Assembly (NCBI GenBank): GCA_965263255.1
Contig: CBDHHA010000008.1
Span: forward strand, 1,916,510-1,980,509
DNA length: 64,000 nucleotides
Origin: Bryobacterales bacterium
Lineage (GTDB): Bacteria; Acidobacteriota; Terriglobia; Bryobacterales; UBA6623
Reading direction: 5' to 3'
Shown: piece by piece, positions 15,717 to 36,956 of the stretch
Numbering within the stretch: position 1 is the stretch's first letter
How the letters are laid out: every line of letters starts with the position of its first letter
Position numbers and translations under genes: made by a program
Notes under the pieces: model-generated
What the model was told of the DNA's origin: nothing
Database searches by the model: none
The model's input: only the letters and a program-made list of their open reading frames with translations

Positions 15717-16276
15717 TCGCACATGCCGAGCTGTGGACCGCAAGCCGATCAATCCCGGTTGCATTCCGCAAGTCCCCCCACGGCAGTGGACTCGGTCAGA
15801 TTCCTGGGAGGCTTGCGGTATGGCTGCGGACCATTGCAGTAGTGACGTAGGGATAGGGATCATCTGCGAAGGTAGCCTCTGACTTCGCAAGAGAATTACG
15901 GGGAATCGTCATCTCCCATCCTGATTCACCCGAAACGCAGGGATTCCGCCTGTCCGTTACGATCGGCGCGATGGTATTGGACTCACGGAGACCCGGAGAG
16001 TCGGAAGGGAAACCGGGCCCGGAGCAGTCGCTGCCCAGAGTCTCGGAAGTGTCCCGCCAAGAGCGGCGGACGTGGCGGGAAGATCTGGAATCGCTGAAGC
16101 CCGACAAAGCGGGTCCTTACGAGACGGACCGAACCGGGGTACTGGCAAGAGCCGAGGCGGCCATAGCCGAACTAGCCCGGATCGCTCGAACGCTGCGGAT
16201 TCCCCATGGGACGGCCAACGCTGCGGCCCCATCCGGAAGGGCGCGACCTATAGTGAAGTCCGGGGAACCTGAGGCT

Positions 16277-16516
16277 ATGGACAAGAGCGTCGAAATCGTC
16301 TCGACCGGCACGGCCGTGACCGTTCTCGCTGTGATGGTGATTGCAATCCTCGGCGCTGTATGGGCAATCAATACCCGGCTAGAGGATCGGCTGACCAAGC
16401 GCATGGATCGGATGGAAGATCGGGCCACCAAGCGCATGGATGGAATCGAAGCGCGGATCGACGGCCTGCCGGGGGATATGGAAGCCTACCGGGAGTCCGA
16501 GACTCGGAAGCCCTGA
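16277..16516 (+). CDS. Small single-pass membrane protein with 11-residue tandem repeats (hypothetical)
   Basis: ATG at 16277, in frame within track ORF 15971..16516. TM helix GTAVTVLAVMVIAILGAVWAI, then RLTKRMDRMED / RATKRMDGIEA / RIDGLPGDMEA. The 15-nt string accaagcgcatggat occurs twice, 33 nt apart. Confidence 0.35.
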   Translation: MDKSVEIVSTGTAVTVLAVMVIAILGAVWAINTRLEDRLTKRMDRMEDRATKRMDGIEARIDGLPGDMEAYRESETRKP

Positions 16517-17471: not shown

Positions 17472-17825
17472 ATGAAGATTACAACCCAAAGCATGGAGAT
17501 TCTGGAAAGCAAGAGCTTCCTCATTTCCGGAAATGGAGAGACGGTGATTGCGCTGGGTGATCTAGATCCGGTTCGATTTTGTTTCAACTTTGTAGAGAAT
17601 GCAACCAAAGACACGGACATACAATGGGAAGCGATTGACGAGAAAGAGCTGCGGATCACATTGTATAATTGGAACAACCCATTGGGGGGCACTCTTGCAA
17701 AACCACATGCAGTGGGCTCCTATAATGGTCGTCAATTATTTCTTCTTTTCATGGTCAATACGACTGGCAAAGCTGAGAAGATTCGGCATGTAACGATATC
17801 GTTTTATCTGGGAGGGAATGTTTAG
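17472..17825 (+). CDS. Hypothetical 117-aa protein (AT-rich island cargo)
   Basis: Clean ATG-to-TAG ORF in a 38% G+C stretch. Non-repetitive, beta-rich-looking sequence with no recognisable motif. The stop lies 3 nt before the next ORF. Confidence 0.5.
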   Translation: MKITTQSMEILESKSFLISGNGETVIALGDLDPVRFCFNFVENATKDTDIQWEAIDEKELRITLYNWNNPLGGTLAKPHAVGSYNGRQLFLLFMVNTTGKAEKIRHVTISFYLGGNV

Positions 17826-17828
17826 CAT

Positions 17829-18155
17829 ATGACGAGAGTTAAAGTTGACGCTGAATTCGTTGCACCTCCAAAAATTATTGTTCCCCTAGTGCGAGGTGAT
17901 CATCATGCTGTGTCAAATATTTTCAGGGTCTTCTTTGAGGTTTTCTTGGCACTATCATCGACTATTTTGGGCTTCGTCCTAGCACAGCCGAGCCATGATG
18001 ATTTTCAATACGCAGTATTAGTTGCATGCGTGGTCGCTACGATAGCTTTTGCGTATTTCTCTTACAGGTACGGAAGGGTGATGCTGCCAACAGATCCCAG
18101 CCAACCAGCAGAGCATCGAGGCGGTGGTTTTAATGGGTCACCTGTGCAAGAATAA
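17829..18155 (+). CDS. Hypothetical 108-aa two-TM membrane protein (AT-rich island cargo)
   Basis: GGGAGG lies about 13 nt upstream of the ATG. Two hydrophobic helices are predicted (IFRVFFEVFLALSSTILGFVLA; AVLVACVVATIAFAYFSY). Tightly coupled to 17472..17825. Confidence 0.5.
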   Translation: MTRVKVDAEFVAPPKIIVPLVRGDHHAVSNIFRVFFEVFLALSSTILGFVLAQPSHDDFQYAVLVACVVATIAFAYFSYRYGRVMLPTDPSQPAEHRGGGFNGSPVQE

Positions 18156-18198: not shown

Positions 18199-18960
18199 CT
18201 ATTTCGGCTCTAGACTGAAGATTCTCTCGCGATGGTACGTGAGTCTGCGGCGATGTTCGTCATTCAACGGAATCGGGCAAGTGAAACGCATTTGTGATCT
18301 TGCTTCCGCACCTAGGATTGGTGAATACTCAGGGCAGCCGTCATCATTAAACGTGACTAACCCCTTGTCGAAGGCGACGTCCCAGAGTGCAGATAATAGC
18401 AATCCATTGTGAATATTGAGGCGTTCATCGTCTTCGAGGCAATCGGCCCAAGGGATAATATGGGATGCGCGGAGTAGCGGTGGGTCTGTGATTCCCGTCA
18501 ACGGGCAGCGCCCTTGCCAATAGGTCATAAGCCTTTCTCGAAAAATGTCTTGTCCTACTCGCTGGATGACCAAGCGCTCAGCTTCGGTGGTCCTCGGCAA
18601 CTGTTTAGTCGCTGCGAGAAAATCTTCAAGCGGGCGATCCGGAAGAGTACATCCCAGGGCATAGACTCTCGTCAACACCCGATAGAGATCACCGAGGGTT
18701 GGGAATGAATAGCGTCGCAGGCCGGGTCCCGACACCTCGGCAGGAGAGATTCTTAGTTCTTGAACCACGCCGCCATGGTCAAGGGCCAGTAGCCAGGGTC
18801 CGGCTGCCCCTGTTCCGGCTAAGTAAATGGTGCCTCGTGCCGTGGTCGAGCCGTATCGAGCCCAGCCATTGGTTTCACCCATCGATCGGCGGTAACCGTT
18901 TTGTGAGGCGGCCTTCTTGCATTCTTCCCGAACGACGAATCCTTGTGGCGCTTCGATCAC
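18199..18960 (-). CDS. HNH endonuclease (HNH_2 / PF13391-like) with an unassigned N-terminal domain of about 130 aa
   Basis: QRVGQDIFRERLMTYWQGRCPLTGITDPPLLRASHIIPW...NIHNGLLLSALWDVAFDKGLV matches the HNH_2 pattern. The GTG start overlaps the methyltransferase stop (GTGA). Confidence 0.85.
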   Translation of the reverse strand: MIEAPQGFVVREECKKAASQNGYRRSMGETNGWARYGSTTARGTIYLAGTGAAGPWLLALDHGGVVQELRISPAEVSGPGLRRYSFPTLGDLYRVLTRVYALGCTLPDRPLEDFLAATKQLPRTTEAERLVIQRVGQDIFRERLMTYWQGRCPLTGITDPPLLRASHIIPWADCLEDDERLNIHNGLLLSALWDVAFDKGLVTFNDDGCPEYSPILGAEARSQMRFTCPIPLNDEHRRRLTYHRERIFSLEPK

Positions 18961-21900
18961 AGACCCAGCTCCTCGAACTGGCCAGTGCTCTCCATCTTAT
19001 CCCACACAGAAAGGATGAGACGTCGGGTACGATACTCGCCGATCTGACGAATCTCTCTGTCCCTAAGGATGCGAAAAGTCTCCGATGGGTAATCGGTTCC
19101 ACGCACTTCAGACGGGTCTAACGTGTAACGTAGTTCATCTCGCGTCAGTCCGTAGGCGCGTGCATAGAAGCAATCTAGTTCAGCACGGAGTTGTCTACGC
19201 TGATCGTTACGCCATGGGAATGGAGGACCCTTGTAGCCAAGATCACGCGCAAATGGAGCCATTTCGTGTGATGTGTAGATGAGTTCACAGAGTCGAGGAC
19301 GAACAAAGTTGAGCCGATTATCACGATAGAAGCTTGGTGTAAATAGTGGAAATTGCCGTAATATGAAATAGTTTATGGTAGTTCCGCCGAGTTTGTTTCT
19401 TGCAGAGTAGTCGAGTATGAGTGAGCACATATTCGCACATATTGAGGAGATTAGCTCTGGAAGGCGACTCGGCTCGGGCAATATCAATACAATCTTGTTT
19501 CCCACCGCAACCCTCGGAAACACCGTTGAGATGACCGTTCGCTCGTTTGTCGCATTCGTAATGTCGCGCCAACCCATCAGCCAGCGACGCGACCAACCCA
19601 AGGCAGCCAGTCGCTCGTTGACTTCTTCTACCGGCACCCAGTAGCGGGGGGCTGGTTCGAACGTTGGATCCTGCTTGTCGGTCAGTTCGACGTTAGCCGT
19701 CTTCTTGCCCTCCTCGTCATAGCTCGCCCAGCGATGATCGAACTGATGGATCATCTTCGCCTCGTAGAGCGGCACGTAGCGCTCTGCGAGTGGCTTGGCA
19801 ACGCCCAGAAGCAGGCCATCAGCTAAGGAGCCCGAGCTTGCCGAGCCCTCCGTGGCGCGCTCAGCACCCTCGCGAACCCAGTCAGTCCCTTCCCGCACGT
19901 ACCCCGCTTCCGCCAGCTGCAGCGCCGTCCGGAACAGCCCGGAGTCGTTGGACATGTCGAACATGCGCGCAAACTTGACACCCCACGGATTGCCCGCCGC
20001 TCCCTTCGTGTGGTCGACCAGCACGGGCGCATTCGCGTAGATCTTCGCGGTGAGGTCCGCATCGGCGCGGGACCGGAAGACCGGGGCCGTGCGGGTGTTG
20101 GGGTTGATCGCCGCGATTTGCTCCGGAGTCAGCGTGAAGTTCCTCGCGGGCTCCGCCAGCTGCCCCGGCTCGGTCAGGAAGAACGCGAACCGAGCGACAC
20201 CTTCGTCCCGCCCGAGCGTCAGAAGACAGAATTTGATGCGGCTGTCGATTGCCCGGAAGATCTTGGATCTGTTCTCGAAGTCCACCAGCCGGGCCAGCCG
20301 TCTCTCCGTGACCAAGTCCGCGAAGAAGTCCGCGGTGGTGGCATCGGTGGCGATTCCCGTAGGCACGATCAGTCCGGCGCGGTCGCGGGAGAGTTGAGAG
20401 AAGAGCTCCGCAAAGAGTGCGTAGGTGTTGATGTCGCCTCGGCCAGTCCGTATGAAACGCCCGCCTTCCTTGGCTGCGGTGCGTACGAAGGCGCTGACCG
20501 CTTCGGACTCTCGTTTCGCGGAAACGAACTCCTTGTACAGCCGTTGATCGGCGCTGGCTTCAGGTGCGGTTGCCAGCGCTTGGATCAAACGTCCCCGCTC
20601 TGCCTTATTCCGAGCCTGCTCGATCTCCGGCCTGCGCGCACCGAAGAACTCCTTCTCCTGGAGCTTAATCCGCTCCCACGGCGGATTGCCCAAGACCACG
20701 TCGAATCCCCCTCGGGCCATGACATCGGGGAATTCCAACGGCCAGTGGAATACCCTCGCTTCCCGAATGACTCTTACGGCACCCTGCATGGATCGCGGAT
20801 ACCCACCGCCGCCCAGGATGCTCCAGACATCCTCTGTGGTCGGCACCATATAGGCATGCTGGCTTGATTGAACATCGCCTGTCTTCGGCATGAGGAACGC
20901 CGCGACGTAGAGGTCAGCCGCCGCCTTCATGCGCTCGAACGACTTGCCCCGACGCAGCTGTTGGAACTGGCGAACCTTCTGGTCGATTTGCTTGACGGTG
21001 TCCTCCTGCAGGTCGCGCAATCCCGCGAATCCGATTGCGAGCGGCCTCATGGCCGGCAGCTTCACCTTTCCGGTCTCGAATGCAAAGCGGGCCTGCCCGG
21101 TCTTGGTGTCGCGATTGGCTCCCCGGCATGCGGCCGCGACGGCCCCGTCATCACCGGTCAGGGACTTGTAGGCGTCATCGGGTATTCCTTGCTCGAGCAC
21201 AGACAGATCGAATACGCCGACCAGCGCGTCGCCGCACCGGATCTGTGCGTCGAAGAATCCGAGAGGCAGTCCGGGATCGACTGTCTCGATCCAGAGAGCG
21301 ACCTTCGCCAGTTCCACCGCCATCGGGTTGCGGTCCACGCCGTGGATGCATCGACTCGCAACATCCCGGAGCGCATGCCGGACATCCGCCGCGGAGGGTG
21401 ACCCGTCCGCCCGTATCCGAGCAACTCGGGTCGCAATGCGCCTGGCCGCCGCCAGCAGGAAGTGGCCGGAGCCGCAAGCGGGATCGATCACCTTCAAGTC
21501 GAGCAGCGCTGCCTCGCGATCATCAGCCCGCGCCTCGGTGCGGTCGAGCACCGGCTCCAGCGCGGAGTCCAGCAGTGCTTGGACAAGGCTCTCGGGTGTG
21601 TAGTACGAGCCTGTGGTCTTCCGCTGATTCCCCTTCTGCTCGGCTACGTCGGAGGCGAATTCGAGACGCCGGCCCCCATCTGCAAGCTGCGGCTGGAGCT
21701 CCAGCAGGGACTCGTAGACCGAGCCAAGCTCCTCGGTCTCCATAGCGCGCCAGTTCACCGGCACCCTTCCCCCCTGATCGGAGAGCCACGCCAAGCGGTA
21801 AATGGCCTCCATGAACGCAGAATTCCGAATTCGGGCTTCTGCCAGGTTGGGAAGTTGGACCTCGCTGAACAGCCCACCGAGTCCGGGCAGCGCGAGCCTG

Positions 21901-22946
21901 TTCTCGCCGATGGTCAATGCGCGAAAGACCACCTTCATGCCCTCGTAGCGGTCGTGGTGTCCGTCCCATGCCGATCTACGCACGCTCTGCTCCCGAAGAG
22001 CACCGAGACTGTAACCGTCGGCATAGAGAGTTCGGGCACCGGCACGGGAGCTTGGAGGATGCAGGAGGTTCCGGTCCTCGGCAACCATAAGGAAGATCAG
22101 TCGGTAGACCAGCCGCAGGAGTTCGTTGAACCAGGCCGTCAACGAGAGGTCGGACGAGTGAAGCCGCGTGGCCAACTCCGGGTTCGCATCGATGAAGCCC
22201 GATCCAAGCACGCGGAGCGCAGCCTCGACTTGGATGGCAAGACGGTTCCGAGCAGTCTCCCCCTCGACAGCCCCTGCCTCCCGCCAGCGTTCCAACGCGC
22301 AGTCGGTAGCAGGAGTATCCTCCGAACCAAATCGGGATCGATGAACGATCAGCCAGAGTGCCGCGAACGAAGCGATGTCGTCCGTCGAGAAGATCTGCTC
22401 GAGATCGGCTTCGATGTGGGCATGACGGGTGAGCGAAGCATTGTCGCGCATCAGGCGCAGCTTCGTCCCGTTGCTCACCAGCCCCCAAAGGGCCTGCTCG
22501 TGCTGGTTCAAGTAGTCTTGCAGCGCTAAGGCGGGCGAGCGAGGCCGATCCGTGGATAGAGTGGGACTCCGCCTGTCGATGGATTCCGAAGGCGGCACGA
22601 TGATAACCGGGACGCGCGAGCCATCCAGTCCGGCAATCGTTCCAACCTCGTCCCCAAGATCAGCGAAACCTAGGGCCTCAGACAGGAGCCCTCGCACGAA
22701 GCGACGGGTGGCTTGCGCGGTGGGTGAGTCCGCGAAGGGAAATGCGTCGAAGTGAGCCTGCCCAACGCGGAAGGCGAGAGCAATCTCCTCCCTGATCGTC
22801 AGGCCCTTGCGAACGCCGTAGCTGCCGTCGCTCTGGTCACCCGCCTTGCAACGGTCAATCTTCGCAACCATCGCCGGTGCGATGAGGTTGCCTTCAAGTG
22901 ACAGCGATGGCCAAGCCGCTAAGTCGTTGGAAGCTCTGCGAGGCAC
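18957..22946 (-). CDS. Large N6-adenine DNA methyltransferase (Eco57I/PglX-like gamma class; DrmMI-like)
   Basis: AdoMet motif I, DPACGSGHF, lies at nt 21459-21485. Catalytic motif IV, NPPW, lies at nt 20676-20687. I checked both against the nucleotide sequence. 1329 aa. The GTG start lies 3 nt after the SNF2 stop. Confidence 0.85.
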   Translation of the reverse strand: MPRRASNDLAAWPSLSLEGNLIAPAMVAKIDRCKAGDQSDGSYGVRKGLTIREEIALAFRVGQAHFDAFPFADSPTAQATRRFVRGLLSEALGFADLGDEVGTIAGLDGSRVPVIIVPPSESIDRRSPTLSTDRPRSPALALQDYLNQHEQALWGLVSNGTKLRLMRDNASLTRHAHIEADLEQIFSTDDIASFAALWLIVHRSRFGSEDTPATDCALERWREAGAVEGETARNRLAIQVEAALRVLGSGFIDANPELATRLHSSDLSLTAWFNELLRLVYRLIFLMVAEDRNLLHPPSSRAGARTLYADGYSLGALREQSVRRSAWDGHHDRYEGMKVVFRALTIGENRLALPGLGGLFSEVQLPNLAEARIRNSAFMEAIYRLAWLSDQGGRVPVNWRAMETEELGSVYESLLELQPQLADGGRRLEFASDVAEQKGNQRKTTGSYYTPESLVQALLDSALEPVLDRTEARADDREAALLDLKVIDPACGSGHFLLAAARRIATRVARIRADGSPSAADVRHALRDVASRCIHGVDRNPMAVELAKVALWIETVDPGLPLGFFDAQIRCGDALVGVFDLSVLEQGIPDDAYKSLTGDDGAVAAACRGANRDTKTGQARFAFETGKVKLPAMRPLAIGFAGLRDLQEDTVKQIDQKVRQFQQLRRGKSFERMKAAADLYVAAFLMPKTGDVQSSQHAYMVPTTEDVWSILGGGGYPRSMQGAVRVIREARVFHWPLEFPDVMARGGFDVVLGNPPWERIKLQEKEFFGARRPEIEQARNKAERGRLIQALATAPEASADQRLYKEFVSAKRESEAVSAFVRTAAKEGGRFIRTGRGDINTYALFAELFSQLSRDRAGLIVPTGIATDATTADFFADLVTERRLARLVDFENRSKIFRAIDSRIKFCLLTLGRDEGVARFAFFLTEPGQLAEPARNFTLTPEQIAAINPNTRTAPVFRSRADADLTAKIYANAPVLVDHTKGAAGNPWGVKFARMFDMSNDSGLFRTALQLAEAGYVREGTDWVREGAERATEGSASSGSLADGLLLGVAKPLAERYVPLYEAKMIHQFDHRWASYDEEGKKTANVELTDKQDPTFEPAPRYWVPVEEVNERLAALGWSRRWLMGWRDITNATNERTVISTVFPRVAVGNKIVLILPEPSRLPELISSICANMCSLILDYSARNKLGGTTINYFILRQFPLFTPSFYRDNRLNFVRPRLCELIYTSHEMAPFARDLGYKGPPFPWRNDQRRQLRAELDCFYARAYGLTRDELRYTLDPSEVRGTDYPSETFRILRDREIRQIGEYRTRRLILSVWDKMESTGQFEELGL

Positions 22947-22949
22947 GAG

Positions 22950-25733
22950 TCAGTCCCCGCTCGGCAAGAGGACGAAGAGGCCAATGGCATCTGGGGGCTG
23001 CATGCCGTCAACGCTCACCCGAGGGACCGATCCAGCCGCAACCCGCAGCTTGGCGTGGTCGTCCGCCAGTGCCTTCGCCCGCTCCCGAACGAATGCGTGT
23101 ACGGTATCCCGAAGAAGATCCGGCAGTGCCTCGAGGGCCTGCCCGATGATCCGCTGCCGAGCAATGTGGGCAAGATCACCGGTAGCGGGTGCATCGAGGA
23201 GTGACCGTACGGCTTCGCCCGAGGAGACGATACCGGAGCCCTCGACAGCGATGAGAGCGGCCTCCTCCGCCAGCAGCAGGCGCTCCTTCCGAGAGTGGAC
23301 GGCGAGCTTGAAGCGCAGCCTCAGCAGCAAGACCCTTGTCATCTTGCTGACGGCGCGAGTTGGCCATGCCCCTAACCGGCCCATCTCTAGCCCTGACATC
23401 GCCACCGGGTCGAGGGCCCCTTCGACAATGGACTCTGCGACTGCGGTCGTCAGCGGATGGGTCCTGCTCAGCAACGATGTACCAGCTTGAGCGGGTTCGG
23501 AGCGAGCAAGCCGTATCGAACCGGATAGCCCATACTGGCCGAGGCGCTCCCGAAGTGGCCGGTCGAGGGCGTGTAGATGTGCCTTAAGATCCGACCCTGC
23601 CGACTCAAGAGGGACACCGTACACGGCCATCGCACGTTCCACGAATCCCAGGGCAGCCTCCGGTGAACCCAGCAGGCATCCGGACCGCTTCCATTCTGGA
23701 GCCACTTCCTGTGGCTTCATCGCATTCTGGGCAAAGCGTGCCCTGGAGCGCTGCTCGTTCTCCAGCGCATCCCGCCACCGGACGTCCATTTGGCGAGACC
23801 CGTCAGCAAGTCGAAGGTCGAGCACCATCTGCTTCCCTTCGCCTCGAAGCAGCATCACCGCAGCCATCAGGGCCTCGGTGACGGGACCTCGTTCCTCGGG
23901 GAGCGGCACCGTCACTCCAGTTGCCTCTCGAATGGCTGCAGCCTTCTTGAGGATGACCTTCAAGACCGCTCCGTCGATGGCGCTGTCCGACGAATACATC
24001 ATCACCGAACGAACGAGCTTGGCTGGCTGGCCGAACCGGTCGACCCGGCCTTCGCGCTGTTGGTGTCTCGTGGGGTTCCATGACAGGTCGTAGTGAATCA
24101 CTGTGTCGAATAGCCGCTGGAGGTTGATGCCCTCCGAGAGACAGTCGGTGGCGACTAGGATGCGCTGGACTTCGTCGTCGCCCCCGTCCGCCATGGCCTC
24201 CACTCGAGCCCTCCGCTCACCCGGGGTGAGCACCCCGGTGACGGACTCGATGCGAAGTCTCGGATAGTGCTCGCGCAACGCATCTCGAACATGCTCGGCC
24301 GTCGCGATGAACCGGCAGAAGACCACCGGGTTGGCCCCTTCCTTCAATAGCGGTCCAAGGATTCTGACCAGCTCCTCGACCTTGGGGTCAGGTGCTCTTA
24401 TGAGGCTCTCGGCCGACTCAATCAGCTCCCGGAGCGACGAATCAACCTCGAACGCTACGCTTGGCTCGACATCGACGGCGTCTTCGTTGTCACCATCTTC
24501 GTCATATATCTGGGACTCGACGCGTCCCACCTCTGTGGCCATGCGGTTTCGCAAGGCGCGAAGGGCCGCCCGGGGCGAGGAACCGACACAGCGCATTAGT
24601 GCGAGCGTTCCCCAGTACGCTAGGTGTCGCTCGTGCCGGTCGCTCCCAATCTGGCCAACGATGCCGAGGCAATAGTCGAGGACGGACTCCTGAAACTGGA
24701 GATACAACGGGGAGAGGGTATACGAGACCTCCGTGGTCTCATGTTTCGGGAACGCCTGGCTCTCTCCCCAATCCCCTGAAGTCACATCGATTCTTCGTCG
24801 CTGGACGAAGTGGCGCGCCAAGCGCTGGCGGTACCGCACGTCATCGAACTCCGGTGAGGCGAATTCGTTGTCGATGAGCGAGAGCAGGCGCGAGAACGCT
24901 TCCGCATCTCCGGAGTGCGGCGTGGCCGTCAGCATGATCATGCGACGTTCCGGATCACTGGCGAGCCGCCGTAGTAGCGCGAATCGCTGCTGCTTGCCCC
25001 TGTGTGTCCCCACACACGAATGCGCCTCGTCCACGATGACAAAGTCGGGGCACGCCTGTGCGAATGCCTCGCGTCGCCTTTCCGCCTTGATGTAGTCCAA
25101 GCTGACCACGGTATGGGGATACGCCTCGAAGAGCGACTGCGCAACGGGCAGGCCACGTTCCAAACGGGCCGCGGTCCCGGAAGTCACGGCTACCGGGTCA
25201 ATGCTGAAACGCGACCTCAGTTCAGTGGTCCATTGCTCGACCAAGTGCGGGGGGCAGAGCACCGCGAAGGCGTCCGTCTCCCCTCGATCCATCAGTTCCC
25301 GGAGGATCAAGCCCGCCTCAATAGTCTTGCCGATACCAACGTCGTCTGCGATTAGAATGCGTGGCACTCTGAGGCGGAGCGCCATGAGCAGGGGCACGAG
25401 CTGATAGATGCGCGGCTCGAAGCTGATCTGGGCGGCGCATCGGAAAGGACCAGCTCCGCGCCGGAGCGTTAGGCGTAACGCATCCGCGAGCAGGGCCGCC
25501 TTTGCCTGGACGATCGGATTCGCGTCCTCCGGCAAGTCGAATCTAGCCGGTTCAACCGGCGCAATCTCGAGGCTCGGATCAAGTAGTACGGTGTCTTTCT
25601 CGCTGCCCGACAAGGGACGAAGAGCGAGCACGTCGGCACTATGCGAGGGCACCGCGACCCACTCGCGCCCTCGCGCCCGTACGAGATCCCCGGGAGTGAA
25701 GGCAATCGGCTCCACGTTACTCTCGGAGGGCAT
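22950..25733 (-). CDS. SNF2-family helicase (DrmD-like)
   Basis: Walker A ADDVGIGKT, DEAH box (VIVDEAHSC), and helicase-C motifs LSEGINLQ and QREGRVDRFGQ. A C-terminal extension of about 370 aa follows. The ATG overlaps the upstream gene by 17 nt. Confidence 0.85.
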   Translation of the reverse strand: MPSESNVEPIAFTPGDLVRARGREWVAVPSHSADVLALRPLSGSEKDTVLLDPSLEIAPVEPARFDLPEDANPIVQAKAALLADALRLTLRRGAGPFRCAAQISFEPRIYQLVPLLMALRLRVPRILIADDVGIGKTIEAGLILRELMDRGETDAFAVLCPPHLVEQWTTELRSRFSIDPVAVTSGTAARLERGLPVAQSLFEAYPHTVVSLDYIKAERRREAFAQACPDFVIVDEAHSCVGTHRGKQQRFALLRRLASDPERRMIMLTATPHSGDAEAFSRLLSLIDNEFASPEFDDVRYRQRLARHFVQRRRIDVTSGDWGESQAFPKHETTEVSYTLSPLYLQFQESVLDYCLGIVGQIGSDRHERHLAYWGTLALMRCVGSSPRAALRALRNRMATEVGRVESQIYDEDGDNEDAVDVEPSVAFEVDSSLRELIESAESLIRAPDPKVEELVRILGPLLKEGANPVVFCRFIATAEHVRDALREHYPRLRIESVTGVLTPGERRARVEAMADGGDDEVQRILVATDCLSEGINLQRLFDTVIHYDLSWNPTRHQQREGRVDRFGQPAKLVRSVMMYSSDSAIDGAVLKVILKKAAAIREATGVTVPLPEERGPVTEALMAAVMLLRGEGKQMVLDLRLADGSRQMDVRWRDALENEQRSRARFAQNAMKPQEVAPEWKRSGCLLGSPEAALGFVERAMAVYGVPLESAGSDLKAHLHALDRPLRERLGQYGLSGSIRLARSEPAQAGTSLLSRTHPLTTAVAESIVEGALDPVAMSGLEMGRLGAWPTRAVSKMTRVLLLRLRFKLAVHSRKERLLLAEEAALIAVEGSGIVSSGEAVRSLLDAPATGDLAHIARQRIIGQALEALPDLLRDTVHAFVRERAKALADDHAKLRVAAGSVPRVSVDGMQPPDAIGLFVLLPSGD

Positions 25734-28700
25734 CTATCAACTCGGCCGGCACGCCGTCAGACCCTCCATCTGTAAGTTCGTACAGCATCCATCCACGATC
25801 TTCTGCTTCCGTCCTCGCCACATCCGGGATGGAACCGACCATAGCGGCTACGTAATGTCGGTGCCACGTGAAGGGAAAACTGGTCCCGCCGAGCGTTAAG
25901 GGCTCGGCATCGGGCAAGGGCAGACCGTGTTCGGCAATGATGTCCCGCCAACCGGCCGCAGCACCGTTCTCTGCGGAGACCTTCGTCGGGACCACATCCC
26001 CTCTCGCTAGGTCTACCAGGAGTTGTCTCACTTGCTCACTAGTGCGATCGATGTTCTCGTGATCGGGTTGGTTGTAGTAGGAAAGCAAACAACGATAGCA
26101 CCCTCGGACGCACGGGGCGTCCGGTAGATCCCTGAGATGGTCAGTACTGCCGTCTCTGACGGCTTCGGCAACTCCGTCCAGGTGCATCAGAACGAGTGCC
26201 TGTCGGGCGACGCGTCGCAGCGCTTCCGGGTCTTCGATGAGTCGGCTCAGGACTCCCGCGCCCCCCTCGGTGGCCTCATATGCGAGGATGGCGCGCCGCT
26301 TGTCTCGATCGGGCAAGGGCTCGGCGAGTATCTCCCCCTCCTCAAGTTGGAAGACTACGGTAAGGCCCCTCACCAAGGCGTGCTGGACGGTGGCGATGGT
26401 TTTTGGATGGTAGCGCCCAGGCGTTTCGAATCGAAGCAGGAGTGCGTTCTTGCGATCCTCGACGATGGGAACGATCCGCACCCGCGCCGCCTCGTCGGGA
26501 GGAGCATCGGATTCTGGGTCCTCGTCCTCGGATTTGGCCCAGTAACCAGTCCGCGGATCAATCACGAATCCAAGCACGTTCCGGTTGCTGCGCCGCTTCA
26601 AACCCTTGTTGATCCGGCTGATTCTTGCGCTGTTGGCGTATTGGAGCGTGATGATCGACGTGTCGTCGACACGGAATACCGCCTCCGAGACGTCCAAGCC
26701 GCCGTGGCCGTGCTTCACCGGCCATGCGAATACAGTCTGAATATCGAAGCCCATTCGAACGCGTTCCTCGTCGTTGACGGTGATGCGCTCAGCAGGCACC
26801 GCTTCGACGTTGTCGATCCTGAGCGTCCGCTTGACCCGAACTGCGTTGCTCATTGAGGATGCGCAACCGTGGCACCTCTCGACCTCGTCACTGTGGGAGG
26901 CACCGCAATTCGGACAGATCACCAGATCCCGCGTCGAGAGTTCCTGGCCGTCTCGAGTGCGAACCTCCGGCGGCAGCTTCGCCCTCACGACGCGAAACGC
27001 CCGGCCCTCGTGATAGATGAGACTGCGGGGCCCGAACTCGGAGATGGCAAGGAACCGCGCGCGCTGCAGGTAAGTGCCATGCTTGGAGAGGCTAGGTCCT
27101 CTTGAGCCGGGAATGAACGCATAGAGAGGTAAACGAGGGAAGTTGTAACCGGGCAGGAAACCCTCGGTAGCAAGGTAACGGTACGAGTAGAAGTCAGATC
27201 CGCCTGTCTCCCTGCCTTGCTCCAAGATCTCGATCTGATCGGAAGCCTGCGCCTGTCTGGCCCTCACCCGTCGACGTTCTTTATCCGAGAGCCCCGGCCT
27301 CTCTGACTCTTGGTTGGCTTCACTAAGTTGTGTGTGGGCAGCGCCATAGAGTTGGCGCCACCTCTCGAAGGCACGGTCAAACTGTTCCGGCGCGCCTTCG
27401 GCTACAGTGGCGACGAACTGCTCCGGATCGTCCATCCAAGCGGGGATCCCACTCTCGAGAGAATCGAGAATCTGATACAGTATCCGACTCATTGACTCCT
27501 GGGCCCTTTCGGTTAGACCGGGTTTAGTGACAGCCTCGGCAACGGCTCCTTGAAGGGGGTACGCTTCCTGATTGAGGTCTAGGATATCGGGGATCTTCGG
27601 CGCGAGGTCGAGTCCGGTCTCGGCAAGCCAGACTGCATGGAGGTGAGAGGTCACAAGACTCTCATTGGTGATGTCAAGAGCGGGCGGGCGCACAGCGCCG
27701 GCCACCATCTCGATGCGCCTCTCGAAGTAGTATTGGTCATGCGGGGACTGGGCTGCGCAATAGGTCAGGATGGCGGCCGACTGTCCCGACCGACCCGAAC
27801 GACCCGCGCGTTGCGCGTAGCTCGCCGGTGTCGGCGGGACGTTGCGTAGGTAGACTGCATTCAGGGCCGAAATATCGACTCCCAACTCCATCGTGGGAGT
27901 GCAGAACAGGGCAGGTAGCAGATTCCCGGACTCCCCGCTGGCAGTGATCTGCGCTTCGGATTCCGCAAGCCGCTGGCGATCGTCCTGCTCGTAGCGGAAG
28001 CGCCATTCGCGCCATTCCCGCTGTCGGACAGTGACTTGGGCCGTATGCTCCCGGCTCTCCATCCCGAAGAGCGAGCAGACACTAGCCCCTAGCTCATCGC
28101 CGATTCGAGTGTACAGACCATGGAAGTAGGTGTTTCCGTGGGCGTGCTCGCTCAGGGCGGCATCTCCCCCAACGAGACGGACAGCAGACGGCGAGAGGCG
28201 CCACCCTTGGAGATTCCGGTCGCCCGAAACCGGACTAATCAGCCCGTCTTCGCCCAGTACATTCAGCAGCCTCTGGAGGAACGCCAGATACTCTTCCTGA
28301 GAGAGCTTCTGGCTTATCACTTCCCGACGATTCAAGGAGCGTCCCAAACGCGAACGCGGGCCTGCACGCAGGATCAGCCTCTCTTCACCAAGACTGACTT
28401 CCCTCTTTCCGGGCGCCGTCAAGCAGAGCTTGGTATGTGGCCGGAGTGCTTCCTGCCCGTCGATGCCCCATGGACTGCGCAGCAATGTCCTTGACTTCTG
28501 CCCAACCATGTCGAGGATGGCAGGATCGAGCGCTTCGGTACCAACAGCCAAGCCCTCGAGCATGAACTTAAGGACTTTACCGATCACAGACTTACGCCCA
28601 GTCCGGTCGAGGGTGCCGAGGGCGGGAAGGACGCGCTCCAGCCTTTGCTGATCCCCCGCAATGTCGTCGAGGCCGACGAAGTGCGGTTCGATCAACCTAA

Positions 28701-30912
28701 GGTCAGCCAGGCTCGGATTGGTGAATCGCCAACCACGACGTAGATCCGACCAGATCCGGTACGAGAGCACTTTGGCCAGAGCACGTTCAGCGTCGCTGCG
28801 AATGACCGGTCCATTATCTGGATTCAGCATCCAGTGCCTGCGAAGGTCTTTGTTCGAGTCTGTGAACCCGAGCGCCCGCTGCACGCGGTAACCGAATTCT
28901 TCGTCGGCCAAGCCGTGCTCGCCAGCCCGGAGTACGGCTTGCAGCATCGCCCCGCGGAGCAGTGTGACGAACACAAAGTCGTTGAAGTGTCCAGCTTGGA
29001 GCGCAGCATCTTGTCGGTTGTCAATGAACCCGAGCAGCTTGCGCTTGTCATCCGGAACCTCGCTCTCTGGGCGGTTCAGCCACTGGAGGGCACTCGAGAC
29101 GAAGAGGGTGCTGGCGGAACTTCGGCCCTCCGATGTCAGCCCGGCTAGCTTGGTCCGTTCTCGTGTCGCAGCGTGCGGAGCGTCAATGCAGGCCAAGCAG
29201 AAACGGAATTTACCCGGAATGAACCAGAAGGCTTCGCCACTGTCGGAGACCGAGCCATCCCGAGCAACTCGCAATTCTTCGGGTATATGCCTTCTTCGGT
29301 GGCTTCGAATCCTGGTCACGCCTCTGGAGACTTCCGTCCAGTCCTCGGGCACAGTGTCGATGCTTCCGTCGAACCGGAGCGCAAACTCTCCAACCCCATC
29401 AGGCGTCAGGTAGCCCGCAACCTCCGCATCGTTTTCATCGTTGTTCGGCGTTTCGTCAATGCTTCGAGGCAGCAAACAGAATCCGTCCGCGGTCGCGACT
29501 CTGTTCACCACGTAGTATTCCTGGCCACACTCGCGACAGAATCGAACCGGATAGAGACGCGTTCCCGGGGCACTGGGGTCCTCTAGCTGGCCGTCCAGAA
29601 GTACTGTTCGCGGCCTTGACTGCAGGGTTACGAAAACGTCCCCTGCCCCCGCAACGAACCGGTGGAGCTTGAACGCAAGAAACGCATTCTCCCCGGAGCC
29701 GCCTCGTTCCGTCTCAGGCAGGCTGACCTGTGTCAGAAACTGCTCAAGGACAGTTTGGCAGCGGTCAGGGGCTGCTCCGCTGACACTCGCCAGGGCCTCG
29801 GCAGCTCGGGCGACTGACATGGGTGGTCGCCGCTTCAGTATCTGTCCATCATCAAGCCCGACGGCTAGCTCCACCCAAACTGCAAGCGCATGTTCGCGAA
29901 GGTCGGAGTCGGAGAGGCGCCTAGGGAGATCGCCAGCGACAATGGCCGGAAGCTGGTCCTTCACATCGTCAACCGTCAGGTGGTTGGCGGTCGCGCGACG
30001 CAAGGATTCGTCGATCACCGCATCTGGCCCAACCGGGGTTCCGAACAGGCGTGACGCCACCCTTGCGACCGCCCGCGCACGGTCGGAATCGCTTCCCTCG
30101 CTGGCCATCGTCGCCGACGTTCCGATGCAGATGGGAGCCTTGTCGCGCGCACAACGATCGCGAAGTCGCCGGACCAAGACAGCTACATCGGCCCCCTGGC
30201 GCCCTCTGTAGGTATGGAGTTCATCGAGAACGATGAATTGCAAGTCCTTGGCATTCGCAATGACCCGCGAATCAATGGGATTCTGCCTCGTCAGGAGCAG
30301 TTCTGCCATCATGAAGTTGGTCAACAGTATATCGGGCGGATTCGAGGCGATTCGCTCGCGCTCTTCATTTCGCTCTTGCCCCGTGTATCGTCGGACAACG
30401 GGACGAAGATTCGAAGATACACCGGACTTCTCGATGAACTTATTGATTTCGTTGAGTTGGCTGTTCGCGAGCGCATTCATCGGGTAGATGATGATCGCTC
30501 TTGTCCCATTTCCCTCCCCAGCTTTCCTCGACCGAATGATGGCATCGACGATCGGGACGAAGAAGCAGAGCGACTTCCCCGAACCGGTTCCCGTTGTTAC
30601 TACGAAACTCTGGTTCCCACACGCTTTAGCTATCGCTTGGCCTTGATGCCGGTGGAAGCGTATAGGCTTACCTCCGAGTTGGAAGACCTGACATGTTTCA
30701 GCACATATATCACCGGATGCGACCAGTTCCTCTGCGGACGGTCCTTTTTCATATAGAGGATTCAGGGATACGAGTGCATCTGGCCAAAAGTGGCCTTCCT
30801 GATACTTGCGTTCAATTCCTTCCTTTAGGTCATCCGCTCTGATCTTGCTGAATGATCGAGAGAAATCACTGTAGCTATCGATAAGGTTTTGATCGAACTC
30901 AAATGCCTTCAT
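25717..30912 (-). CDS. Giant DExH helicase fused to a DUF1998 module (DrmA-DrmB-like fusion)
   Basis: Walker A TTGTGSGKS (res 108-116), DELH (231-235), TSAT, FIDNRQDAA, TPTMELGVDI and QRAGRSGRSGQ (about res 1005-1046). The DUF1998-type block is YRYLATEGFLPGYNFP...CPNCGASHSDEVERCHGC...CVRGCYRCLLSYYNQ. I prefer the ATG at 30912; the track uses a TTG at 30918. Confidence 0.85.
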   Translation of the reverse strand: MKAFEFDQNLIDSYSDFSRSFSKIRADDLKEGIERKYQEGHFWPDALVSLNPLYEKGPSAEELVASGDICAETCQVFQLGGKPIRFHRHQGQAIAKACGNQSFVVTTGTGSGKSLCFFVPIVDAIIRSRKAGEGNGTRAIIIYPMNALANSQLNEINKFIEKSGVSSNLRPVVRRYTGQERNEERERIASNPPDILLTNFMMAELLLTRQNPIDSRVIANAKDLQFIVLDELHTYRGRQGADVAVLVRRLRDRCARDKAPICIGTSATMASEGSDSDRARAVARVASRLFGTPVGPDAVIDESLRRATANHLTVDDVKDQLPAIVAGDLPRRLSDSDLREHALAVWVELAVGLDDGQILKRRPPMSVARAAEALASVSGAAPDRCQTVLEQFLTQVSLPETERGGSGENAFLAFKLHRFVAGAGDVFVTLQSRPRTVLLDGQLEDPSAPGTRLYPVRFCRECGQEYYVVNRVATADGFCLLPRSIDETPNNDENDAEVAGYLTPDGVGEFALRFDGSIDTVPEDWTEVSRGVTRIRSHRRRHIPEELRVARDGSVSDSGEAFWFIPGKFRFCLACIDAPHAATRERTKLAGLTSEGRSSASTLFVSSALQWLNRPESEVPDDKRKLLGFIDNRQDAALQAGHFNDFVFVTLLRGAMLQAVLRAGEHGLADEEFGYRVQRALGFTDSNKDLRRHWMLNPDNGPVIRSDAERALAKVLSYRIWSDLRRGWRFTNPSLADLRLIEPHFVGLDDIAGDQQRLERVLPALGTLDRTGRKSVIGKVLKFMLEGLAVGTEALDPAILDMVGQKSRTLLRSPWGIDGQEALRPHTKLCLTAPGKREVSLGEERLILRAGPRSRLGRSLNRREVISQKLSQEEYLAFLQRLLNVLGEDGLISPVSGDRNLQGWRLSPSAVRLVGGDAALSEHAHGNTYFHGLYTRIGDELGASVCSLFGMESREHTAQVTVRQREWREWRFRYEQDDRQRLAESEAQITASGESGNLLPALFCTPTMELGVDISALNAVYLRNVPPTPASYAQRAGRSGRSGQSAAILTYCAAQSPHDQYYFERRIEMVAGAVRPPALDITNESLVTSHLHAVWLAETGLDLAPKIPDILDLNQEAYPLQGAVAEAVTKPGLTERAQESMSRILYQILDSLESGIPAWMDDPEQFVATVAEGAPEQFDRAFERWRQLYGAAHTQLSEANQESERPGLSDKERRRVRARQAQASDQIEILEQGRETGGSDFYSYRYLATEGFLPGYNFPRLPLYAFIPGSRGPSLSKHGTYLQRARFLAISEFGPRSLIYHEGRAFRVVRAKLPPEVRTRDGQELSTRDLVICPNCGASHSDEVERCHGCASSMSNAVRVKRTLRIDNVEAVPAERITVNDEERVRMGFDIQTVFAWPVKHGHGGLDVSEAVFRVDDTSIITLQYANSARISRINKGLKRRSNRNVLGFVIDPRTGYWAKSEDEDPESDAPPDEAARVRIVPIVEDRKNALLLRFETPGRYHPKTIATVQHALVRGLTVVFQLEEGEILAEPLPDRDKRRAILAYEATEGGAGVLSRLIEDPEALRRVARQALVLMHLDGVAEAVRDGSTDHLRDLPDAPCVRGCYRCLLSYYNQPDHENIDRTSEQVRQLLVDLARGDVVPTKVSAENGAAAGWRDIIAEHGLPLPDAEPLTLGGTSFPFTWHRHYVAAMVGSIPDVARTEAEDRGWMLYELTDGGSDGVPAELIDALRE

Positions 30913-31545
30913 GCCCAACTGACCAAATCACACTCTTGGACACCCACCATCGAACCCATCGCACCGAGAGATCAACATTTACTCTAGGAACTCTCGCAAG
31001 ATTTCTACCCCAACCGGAGAAACTTCGAACCGCAGGAAACATCGTGACGAGCCCGCCGTGACTACTCCGCGGTGGTTGGATTGGCAGGCGTCCGAAGAGC
31101 CCAACCCAATTGCACTCCAGCGCTCGTACGACCGAAGGCACTCCGGCGTACAGAGAACTGCGCCGACCGCACCGGAGGGTCAGTGCGGCTTGAACCCGTC
31201 CCGGACTCAGCGCAACCATCACGAATCCCTGAACGACACTAGCAAACTCTGGTCGCCTCACGGGTCGCATTCGAATCGCAGCGGGCCAGTTCAAGGATTA
31301 GATTGTGACTCGATGGGGTGAGAACAGCTGTTGGAAACCATGGGGTCCATGATCGGTAGCCGGTTCGGGTGTCTTAGTCGACACGACAAGACCACTGAGC
31401 CTGGTGGGAGCAGACTGTAGCCCGAGTGGCGGGGTGTGCCAGTTGTTCCCGCCCCAGCGTCGGATTGGCCCGGTGATCCGCCAGACAGCCCAGCCGTCGC
31501 GCACCCGGGCCGACGATGCAATCCCTTCGGCGGAGGAGAGGGGAC

Positions 31546-35942: not shown

Positions 35943-36956
35943 TCATGCCCGCCGATAGCGGCTCGCCAAGTACTCTTCGACCCAGCGGCGCGAGCTGCGC
36001 CAGTGGCCGTCAGGCCCTCTGGTGGCTTTGAGGCGGCCCCGCTCGGCCGCGGCACGCAACGCCGGAGCCTTGATGCCGGGCATCTCCAGGGCTGCCAGCG
36101 GCACGAGCCTGGCGGGGCCGGCCACAGCCGGAATGACGAACCGATGAAGACTGCTGAGAACCGCGCGTGCCAGCATCTCTCCGAGAAGGCTGGGTTCACC
36201 CGCATCCGCACGGCGCAATGCGTGAAGGTACCTGCTTCGGTCGCGCTTGAGGATAATCGCCGGCGGATAGCCGAGGCGGACCAGAACCAGGTTGAGAACT
36301 AGGCGTCCGGCCCTGCCGTTGCCGTCCAGAAAGGGATGAATCTGCTCGAACCGGCAGTGAGTCTCCGCCAGGGCCTCGGGGAACCTAGTGTCCACTGCGT
36401 CAAGGGCATTCACCCGGTCAACCCACGCCGTCATCTCCGCAGGGACCAAAGGCCATGACACCGGCGTCATGCCCCGAGGGAACGAATGGATCTCATGTTC
36501 GCGGAAGTTGCCCGGTGCTTCGCGTGCAGTCGCGCTTGGATGCGGTGCCACCTGCCAGACTGGCGACAAGGCCTTGTGGTGCACCCGTCGCACTTCCTCC
36601 AGCGTCAGAACCCTCCCAGGACTTGCCAGGCCCGCAGGGCTGATCGCCTGACGGTAGATCCAGTCCGCCGCATCGGCGTAGCCGCGAACCTCCATGTACT
36701 CGCTGAGGTCCTTGTTGCCTACCGCCTTCCCTTCGTCGAGGAGCCTCTCGACCTGCTTCAGGACCAAGGTATTGCCCTCGATGGCAGTCGAGTGATGAGC
36801 CTCCTCGTACCAGATGTCGCGCCAGATACCCTCGGCCTCGACGGGACTCGGCAGGCCGCCCATGCGCTCCCTCAGCTCCAGGATCTGGATCTCGAGCTGC
36901 TGGTAGATCGCGACGCGACGGGGCCTACCACGACTTGGCCGAAAGTGTTCGCTCAT
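35943..36956 (-). CDS. Fic family protein (AMPylase-type), class II with an N-terminal inhibitory motif
   Basis: Fic active-site motif HPFLDGNGRAGR. Inhibitory (S/T)xxxE(G/N) motif STAIEGN at nt 36774-36791. Confidence 0.9.
   Translation of the reverse strand: MSEHFRPSRGRPRRVAIYQQLEIQILELRERMGGLPSPVEAEGIWRDIWYEEAHHSTAIEGNTLVLKQVERLLDEGKAVGNKDLSEYMEVRGYADAADWIYRQAISPAGLASPGRVLTLEEVRRVHHKALSPVWQVAPHPSATAREAPGNFREHEIHSFPRGMTPVSWPLVPAEMTAWVDRVNALDAVDTRFPEALAETHCRFEQIHPFLDGNGRAGRLVLNLVLVRLGYPPAIILKRDRSRYLHALRRADAGEPSLLGEMLARAVLSSLHRFVIPAVAGPARLVPLAALEMPGIKAPALRAAAERGRLKATRGPDGHWRSSRRWVEEYLASRYRRA

Follow-up and report, generated by a model that had tools for sequence, protein, structure and literature searches.

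A conserved HNH nuclease gene beside a degenerate Vsr-like helicase domain in a sub-lineage of predicted ARMADA Type I defense operons

Work continues on how the DISARM, ARMADA (short for disARM-related Antiviral Defense Array), and Druantia systems destroy phage DNA or block it, and an operon in the genome of a Bryobacterales bacterium raises the question of which of its proteins would do the cutting. The operon occupies positions 18199-30918 of a stretch of 64,000 nucleotides from contig CBDHHA010000008.1 (GenBank assembly GCA_965263255.1), referred to here as the window. Four tightly coupled genes on the minus strand, recognized from the list of open reading frames (ORFs) and Pfam searches, encode a YprA/DUF1998 helicase, an SNF2 helicase, an N6-adenine methyltransferase, and an HNH_2 nuclease (Table 1). 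An initial annotation, made from the DNA alone, had taken the locus for a DISARM class 1-like system in which an HNH enzyme stands where the PLD nuclease would be expected. The analysis described here assigns it instead to ARMADA Type I and, quite probably, to a sub-lineage of that type in which the HNH protein has replaced a decayed Vsr nuclease domain of the helicase as the cutting component, the replacement itself being something that we infer.

The junctions between the four genes, as described in the initial annotation, were borne out by direct reading of the DNA. The helicase gene ends with a TAA codon at 25719-25717 and the SNF2 gene opens with an ATG at 25733, which gives a 17-nucleotide overlap, or a 1-nucleotide gap if an alternative in-frame GTG at 25715 serves as the start. 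The SNF2 gene ends in TGA, followed by ctc and then by the GTG start of the methyltransferase gene, whose stop codon in turn overlaps the start of the HNH gene as GTGA. The helicase ORF extends to 30918 from a TTG codon (1733 amino acids), with the ATG two codons inside it as the likelier start. In a consensus scan, internal promoter-like and terminator-like sites were no more numerous in the operon than in shuffled controls. The four-gene observation as a whole is far beyond chance expectation. The domains and motifs quoted in the initial annotation are likewise all present; the searches show DEAD, Helicase_C, and MZB/DUF1998 in the YprA-family helicase (GTGSGKS at residue 108, DELH at 230), SNF2-rel_dom and Helicase_C in the SNF2 protein (GIGKT at 133, DEAH at 235, QREGRVDRFGQ at 559), Eco57I, N6_Mtase, and MmeI_Mtase in the methyltransferase (DPACGSG at 488, NPPW at 754), and HNH_2 in the nuclease (E 7.5e-11). 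The catalytic motifs of both helicases, the methyltransferase, and the HNH protein are intact.

Table 1. Genes of the operon and domains discussed in the text, with their positions in the window.
Feature	Positions	Strand	Extent and basis
ArmC-like YprA-family DExH helicase	25717..30912	-	1731 aa from ATG at 30912
ArmA-like SNF2 / RapA-like (BrxHII-like) helicase	22950..25733	-	927 aa
ArmB-like PglX/DrmMI-like gamma-class N6-adenine DNA methyltransferase	18957..22946	-	1329 aa
HNH_2 endonuclease	18199..18960	-	253 aa
DUF1998 / MZB zinc-binding module of the helicase	26086..26385	-	about aa 1510-1609, has CVRGCYRC; Pfam PF09369, E 4.6e-09 (MZB match at aa 1512-1611)
Degenerate Vsr-like (PD-(D/E)xK) C-terminal domain of the helicase	25720..25995	-	hhalign and catalytic-column read-out
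HNH protein, N-terminal domain, family-private	18601-18960	-	about aa 1-120
HNH protein, HNH domain, VcaM4I-type	18214-18591	-	about aa 124-249

Judged by its proteins, the operon is an ARMADA Type I system, a relative of DISARM and Druantia. The assignment is made because three proteins that align to the helicase along its entire length at 63-64% identity, CCJ05600.1 (Methylocystis), EPX87822.1 (Rubellimicrobium), and EWY37264.1 (Skermanella), appear under the label 'ARMADA Type I helicase' in Table S1 of the paper describing ARMADA (Bell et al., 2025, bioRxiv, PMC12458937), because the published gene order of YprA, then BrxHII-like, then PglX-like protein is the same (Bell et al., 2025), and because the helicase scores far higher against DruE than against DrmA, the placement in the clade being by way of the listed homologues. 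The best PADLOC matches of the helicase are DruE models (270 bits, over several stretches along the protein), as against 54 bits for DrmA, confined to the Helicase_C motif, no DISARM model of NCBIfam reached its cut-off, and NCBIfam gave no match at all to DrmA or DrmB. Its closest solved sequences are 9tu7 (2108 amino acids) and 9wae (1970 amino acids), which we take to be DruE although the names of the deposits do not say so, together with YprA/MrfA. Full-length relatives of about 1723 amino acids number in the thousands at 63-69% identity, the same SNF2 and methyltransferase genes follow helicase relatives in Methylocystis sp. SC2 and in a metagenome contig, and the order helicase-SNF2-methyltransferase is invariant in more than 150 related loci. 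The locus thus belongs to a defined system other than DISARM, an outcome that the initial annotation had itself named as counting against its reading.

The architecture of the helicase can be set beside what has been described for this type. An insertion of about 700 amino acids with CxxC pairs at 459 and 572 lies between the DEAD domain, which ends near residue 273, and Helicase_C, which starts near residue 985; published ARMADA Type I helicases have BrxA-like, zinc beta-barrel, and MarR-like domains between RecA1 and RecA2 (Bell et al., 2025). An OB-CON-DUF1998 module is fused into the same polypeptide, as indicated by the Pfam MZB match and by a Foldseek search with an AlphaFold2 model of the last 331 amino acids, which matched MrfA (6znp, E 6.8e-4) and DrmB in the DrmAB complex (7s9v_B, E 0.019). 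A single helicase-DUF1998 polypeptide is the normal YprA arrangement, and the earlier reading of it as DrmA and DrmB joined into one protein falls away.

The C-terminal domain of ARMADA Type I helicases is a Vsr-type PD-(D/E)xK nuclease predicted to be active and marked 'active?' in Table S2 of the same paper (Bell et al., 2025). In relatives of the window helicase whose operons have no HNH gene, among them Nocardioides pNOCA01, D. radiodurans MP1, and many metagenome loci, this domain shows the canonical motif '...RLPD.AQ.....PDF.Y......vfvDGp.H......D......GY.VvR'. The window residues aligned to it read 'FPFTW..HYVAAMVGS...EDRGWMLYEL', with FPFTW in place of PDFVY and VAAMVGS in place of VFVDGPH, and the catalytic D...DG..H triad is gone. 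Compared directly by hhalign, the degenerate and intact domains align with 80% probability (E 1.4e-5), and through an intermediate Acidithiobacillus-like clade with 98.4% and 98.8% probability, so that by profile comparison the degenerate domain is homologous to the intact one. AlphaFold2 models the remnant as a confident alpha/beta domain, with a pLDDT (predicted local distance difference test) score of 85-94; the fold search with the C-terminal model returned matches to the DUF1998 module only (MrfA, DrmB), and none separately to the Vsr-like remnant.

Loss of the triad and presence of the HNH gene go together across related loci. The triad was scored by aligning all helicase C-termini to a hidden Markov model of the intact domain and reading the three catalytic positions, a simple regular expression having been discarded for misclassifying about ten loci. 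The nuclease was tabulated over syntenic genome, plasmid, and metagenome loci, as the initial annotation had proposed. Neither the window nor any of the 77 informative loci of its lineage keeps the triad; of these 77, 75 have the HNH homologue as the last gene of the operon and two lack it. All 29 informative loci from other lineages retain the triad, 28 of them without the HNH gene and one (L159) with it. The Vsr-intact loci have assorted genes after the methyltransferase (McrB-type AAA_5, GmrSD, SIR2) and no conserved fourth gene. In a neighbor-joining tree of the helicase, built without the C-terminal domain, the HNH-bearing loci fall into one clade, and its sister group has the intact Vsr domain. 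This pattern suggests that an HNH gene was gained, that the Vsr domain then decayed, and that the HNH gene was retained over a deep radiation, an order of events that is what functional replacement predicts. The idea of a swapped effector nuclease survives in part, in that a coupled HNH enzyme would have taken over, although the nuclease replaced would be the Vsr-type helicase domain and not a PLD protein. No PLD-domain ORF is present in the operon, and none occurs among the cargo classes sampled in related loci.

The single locus that combines both nucleases is L159:4668-20023, on the metagenome contig FWWM01005137.1, where an intact Vsr triad (DDGHH) is accompanied by a downstream HNH homologue, 38% identical to the HNH protein of Acidithiobacillus caldus. 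As a member of the group that is sister to the HNH clade, L159 has the appearance of an evolutionary intermediate.

Retention of the HNH gene was followed in a scan of related loci anchored on the SNF2 protein, with one genome per species, which yielded 80 loci. Of the 69 informative genome loci, 67 carry an HNH homologue (57-70% identity) downstream of the methyltransferase gene and in the same orientation, and the HNH gene is still the last one at 40-47% helicase identity, on the plasmids pEL101-243 of Agrobacterium, pCME4A9II of Croceicoccus, and p1 of Acidithiobacillus caldus. The lineage extends over Alphaproteobacteria, Acidobacteriota, Nitrospira, Verrucomicrobiota, and Cyanobacteria. 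Pairwise distances of the helicase track those of the HNH protein, with a correlation of r = 0.90 across 68 loci and of 0.64 inside the window clade (Mantel p <= 0.001), and the two have therefore been inherited as a unit. On this comparative evidence, the HNH gene is the fourth core gene of a large monophyletic ARMADA Type I sub-lineage, placed at the 3' end of the operon.

The HNH protein itself consists of two parts. Its C-terminal part (residues 124-249) aligns to residues 182-307 of VcaM4I with an E-value of 1.5e-19, in an hmmsearch of the family alignment against the PDB, and H167 and N185, put forward as HNH residues in the initial annotation, are indeed invariant in 41 homologues. The N-terminal domain has no Pfam match at E-values up to 10, no similarity to EVE, SRA, or YTH domains is detectable in it by sequence, and it returned 245 representative matches among 1.84 billion proteins; among the 150 matches listed, nearly all are of 300 amino acids or fewer, which fits members of the HNH family or fragments of them. 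In the structural model, this domain has a pLDDT above 90. The top Foldseek match of the model is 6yex, spanning both domains, but with TM-scores of 0.19-0.24 and a root-mean-square deviation of 18 Å.

In the window, the HNH gene directly follows the methyltransferase, and in 14 related loci it likewise abuts or overlaps it, while in the rest inserted genes of 0.45-3.8 kb lie between the two. The insert seen most frequently encodes a DUF2326/SMC-like ATPase of about 655 amino acids (32 loci), and others encode an ImmA/IrrE-type Peptidase_M78 protein, an HD + HD_assoc phosphohydrolase with a partner of about 175 amino acids, a CBS/EAD7 protein, or one of several proteins of no recognized family (for example L005:17220-19180, L033:16729-17850, and L056:16826-19470, among loci L005-L084). 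The methyltransferase-HNH junction thus acts as an insertion slot for variable accessory genes in most relatives; in the window the slot is empty, and the methyltransferase and HNH genes therefore overlap. As such, the cargo slot is a new place to look for accessory defense genes.

Other variations on the operon were seen at single loci. On plasmid p1 of Acidithiobacillus caldus, a Phd/YefM-VapC pair between the SNF2 and methyltransferase genes (L088:19097-19731) marks a second intra-operon insertion site. Just two loci in the window clade lack the HNH gene, and one of them has a methyltransferase shortened to 1109 amino acids, followed by an opposite-strand bacterial ubiquitin-like conjugation cluster with Multi_ubiq, Prok-E2_E, ThiF/JAB, and BubE (L004:17949-23821). 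Plasmid pNOCA01 of Nocardioides sp. JS614 (L089; NC_008697.1, 69492-96324) carries DISARM drmA and drmB with a cytosine methyltransferase directly upstream of a Vsr-intact ARMADA Type I operon, whose own methyltransferase is translationally coupled to an McrB-like AAA protein (Mrr_N domain) and McrC, and McrBC also occurs at the post-methyltransferase position in D. radiodurans MP1. In Methylocystis sp. SC2, a GmrSD/DUF262 Type IV restriction gene lies directly upstream of the helicase gene and overlaps its start (L001:7869-10004), and such a gene is also found directly upstream on plasmid pCP157_06 of Paracoccus marcusii (L085:8950-10908). GmrSD was considered as a conserved component and rejected, since it is directly upstream in just these two distinct loci (L002-L003 being duplicates of L001).

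Several observations weigh against the proposal that the HNH protein took over the cutting role. The core of the HNH domain is modeled with low confidence (pLDDT ~40-46), and the Vsr domain of ARMADA Type I is predicted to be active in the published systems, whereas the lineage studied here has a degenerate remnant. With the HNH-bearing loci forming one clade, the counts of Vsr state against HNH presence reflect essentially one historical event and not 106 independent observations, so the anticorrelation has no statistical independence behind it. Experimental protection is known for ARMADA Type II only, and for Type I, including the HNH lineage, it is a prediction. The remaining points favor a different account. 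The HNH protein would be a modification-dependent (Type IV) enzyme in its own right, travelling with ARMADA as a second defense against phages whose DNA is modified, and would not be the ARMADA cutter; ARMADA in this lineage would then work without DNA cleavage, as BREX does, or by some other activity. The HNH domain shares homology with that of VcaM4I, an EVE-HNH Type IV enzyme, and the top Foldseek match of the HNH protein model is 6yex; Type IV modules (McrBC, AAA_5/McrBC, GmrSD) are often present at the same position in Vsr-intact ARMADA Type I loci, GmrSD-like genes stand directly upstream of the helicase in Methylocystis and Paracoccus, and in most loci cargo parts the HNH gene from the methyltransferase.

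We nevertheless consider such a travelling Type IV enzyme unlikely. Retention of the HNH gene is about 97% over a deep clade spanning 40-100% helicase identity, whereas the genes found at this position in other ARMADA Type I loci are heterogeneous and fast-changing, and the HNH protein and the helicase have diverged in step. VcaM4I reads modifications with its EVE domain and not with its HNH domain, and it is to the EVE, SRA, and YTH readers that the window N-terminal domain shows no similarity detectable by sequence. Catalytic loss of the Vsr domain, finally, coincides with the presence of the HNH gene. Replacement of the Vsr nuclease by the HNH protein is accordingly the explanation that we prefer.

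The DISARM affiliation proposed in the initial annotation would make the operon a class 1 variant with DrmA and DrmB fused and the PLD nuclease DrmC swapped for the HNH enzyme. Much of what prompted it stands, in that homologues of DrmD and DrmMI and a DUF1998 helicase are present and a PLD gene is absent, while the family is ARMADA Type I. The SNF2 protein scores 252-280 bits against DrmD-type models, the upper value being for NCBIfam DISARM_DrmD, which has a cut-off of 610; the methyltransferase has DrmMI as its best PADLOC match (243 bits, with partial coverage), ahead of type IIG models, and also matches a PglX model; and the helicase C-terminal module matches DrmB. The SNF2 and methyltransferase proteins belong by definition to both DISARM class 1 and ARMADA (Bell et al., 2025). 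The profile scores of the helicase speak for DruE over DrmA, no separate DrmB and no DrmC are present, the insertion with CxxC pairs between the RecA lobes fits the ARMADA/Druantia branch, the close homologues are classified as ARMADA Type I in the published table, and the ancestral nuclease of the lineage is a fused Vsr domain rather than a PLD protein. A DISARM variant is consequently very improbable. It is also hard to credit that the methyltransferase and HNH genes are an ordinary restriction-modification pair (a type IIG-like enzyme with an HNH enzyme) beside an unrelated helicase system, as the overlap of the two genes as GTGA and the PADLOC matches to type IIG REase_MTase models (up to 147 bits) and to a 'Type II restriction enzyme' HNH model (53 bits) might suggest, given that all four genes are coupled without gaps, that the helicase-SNF2-methyltransferase order does not vary, that the HNH gene was never seen with the methyltransferase alone and stays with the helicases despite the cargo in between, and that the ARMADA II methyltransferase is needed for defense and not merely for protection of the host.

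The SNF2 protein and the methyltransferase differ in how much they vary. The former has RapA as its closest solved structure (E 4e-24) and is 66-73% identical across the 80 related genome loci, and the latter is the most variable component, at 46-69% identity and 1261-1804 amino acids. The PADLOC 'DpdE' model PDLC02853 matches the SNF2 protein (22950-25733) from end to end at 611 bits. A Dpd (7-deazaguanine DNA modification) system was rejected as an identity for the locus, because no PADLOC model other than this one scores high, the scores stay below the NCBIfam cut-offs (DpdE 195 bits against 500, DpdJ 81 against 800), and no dpd or que genes flank the operon. Given the strong matches to DpdE and to the DrmD/DrmMI models, an automated pipeline might wrongly assign such loci to Dpd or DISARM.

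A mechanism can be proposed by analogy with ARMADA II, BREX, DISARM, and Druantia III. The methyltransferase would mark host DNA with N6-methyladenine, in a motif set by its variable C-terminal part, and would probably also be part of the restriction complex, as are PglX in BREX and ArmB in ARMADA II. On the model of DISARM and Druantia III, the SNF2 and YprA helicases would load onto unmarked invader DNA, probably at single-stranded regions or ends. The HNH nuclease would then cut the invader, in the role held by the fused Vsr nuclease in other ARMADA Type I systems. Its private N-terminal domain may serve to recruit it, possibly through a putative contact with the Vsr-like domain, which is kept but inactive.

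The proposal can be taken further, to the point where one deep ARMADA Type I lineage changed its cutting enzyme altogether: a standalone HNH protein with a private adaptor was acquired, the Vsr domain decayed to a non-catalytic remnant that is possibly a docking site, the HNH protein became the obligatory effector, and the junction before its gene became a hotspot for defense cargo. We regard this complete version as about evenly balanced between right and wrong. If true, it would be a natural and well-sampled effector replacement in a helicase-based immune system, and would help to identify the component that carries out restriction across DISARM, ARMADA, and Druantia. Related operons that differ in the competent nuclease (a fused Vsr domain, a separate HNH protein, or in one locus both) form a natural experiment in which the effector question is testable by point mutants.

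The surroundings of the operon hold a number of further features. G+C content is lower around it, at 0.54-0.61 over about 16-32 kb of the window as against ~0.65, and this dip is all that marks the region; no borders of a mobile element were recognized, with no tRNA gene in the window, no integrase, and no convincing flanking direct or inverted repeats. The same sequence was also met on a contig assembled from a metagenome. Sulfatase genes, an M50 peptidase gene, and a gene for a DUF6864 protein flank the operon, and the genome encodes planctomycete-type PSCyt2/PSD1 proteins. Two small genes on the plus strand (17472-18155) converge on the HNH gene within the lowest-GC stretch of the window (~0.54); they encode a 117-amino acid DUF6864 protein (Pfam E 3e-20) and a 108-amino acid protein whose translation is hydrophobic by eye, have no PADLOC match, and may be additional island cargo. 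Two tandem 33-nucleotide copies, 82% identical (16376-16441), lie inside a 181-amino acid ORF without a family match (15971-16516), in which they give rise to a repeated '..RLTKRMDRMEDRATKRMD..' segment. A minus-strand gene some 5 kb upstream of the operon, adjoining the housekeeping genes ribBA and enolase, encodes a Fic-domain protein (35943-36956) that resembles PADLOC SoFic (77 bits) and PDC-S04 (87 bits).

Compared with systems already described, the operon is not a new kind of system, as its three-gene core and its helicase clade were catalogued in 2025 (Bell et al., 2025). With published ARMADA Type I it shares the YprA clade, the gene order, the fused OB-CON-DUF1998 module, and a large insertion with putative zinc motifs between the RecA lobes, and it differs in the conserved HNH_2 gene at its end, HNH being absent from the text of that paper and present in its reference list only. 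No description of the HNH-bearing sub-lineage, the degenerate Vsr domain, or the methyltransferase-HNH cargo slot was found in the searchable literature. ARMADA Type II, which DefenseFinder predicts as ARMADA II, has been shown by experiment to defend E. coli from phages while leaving the cell alive, a protection that requires all four of its genes as well as the Walker motifs and the NPPW motif (Bell et al., 2025; PMC13463889). Its armABCD operon encodes homologous SNF2 (ArmA), methyltransferase (ArmB), and YprA helicase (ArmC) proteins, but in the order SNF2, methyltransferase, helicase; its fourth gene product, ArmD, is a RelE-GajB-like UvrD helicase and not an HNH nuclease, and its ArmC has Vsr-type domains, one of them predicted to be active, together with an EEP-like domain.

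DISARM class 1 (DrmD, DrmMI, DrmA, DrmB, DrmC) has in common with the operon an SNF2 protein, an N6-adenine methyltransferase, and a DUF1998-associated helicase, along with methylation-based discrimination between self and invader; its helicase belongs to another YprA branch, DrmA and DrmB are separate proteins, and the nuclease is the PLD protein DrmC. Druantia (types I-III) is closest in the helicase, which is most DruE-like in profile searches and has an insertion that probably corresponds to the inserted domains of the ARMADA/Druantia branch. However, none of the Druantia partners (DruA-D, DruF/G/M, DruH) stands beside it in the operon or among its neighbors, DruE of Druantia III has a PLD nuclease, and Druantia has no SNF2 and adenine-methyltransferase pair. 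The VcaM4I-type EVE-HNH Type IV enzymes (6yex), lastly, have a homologous HNH domain and the same layout, with an accessory domain at the N-terminus and the HNH domain at the C-terminus. The N-terminal domain in the window is not recognizably EVE by sequence and, from the number and length of its matches, is apparently confined to its own family, and the HNH gene of the window, unlike these standalone enzymes, is embedded in an operon of helicases and a methyltransferase.

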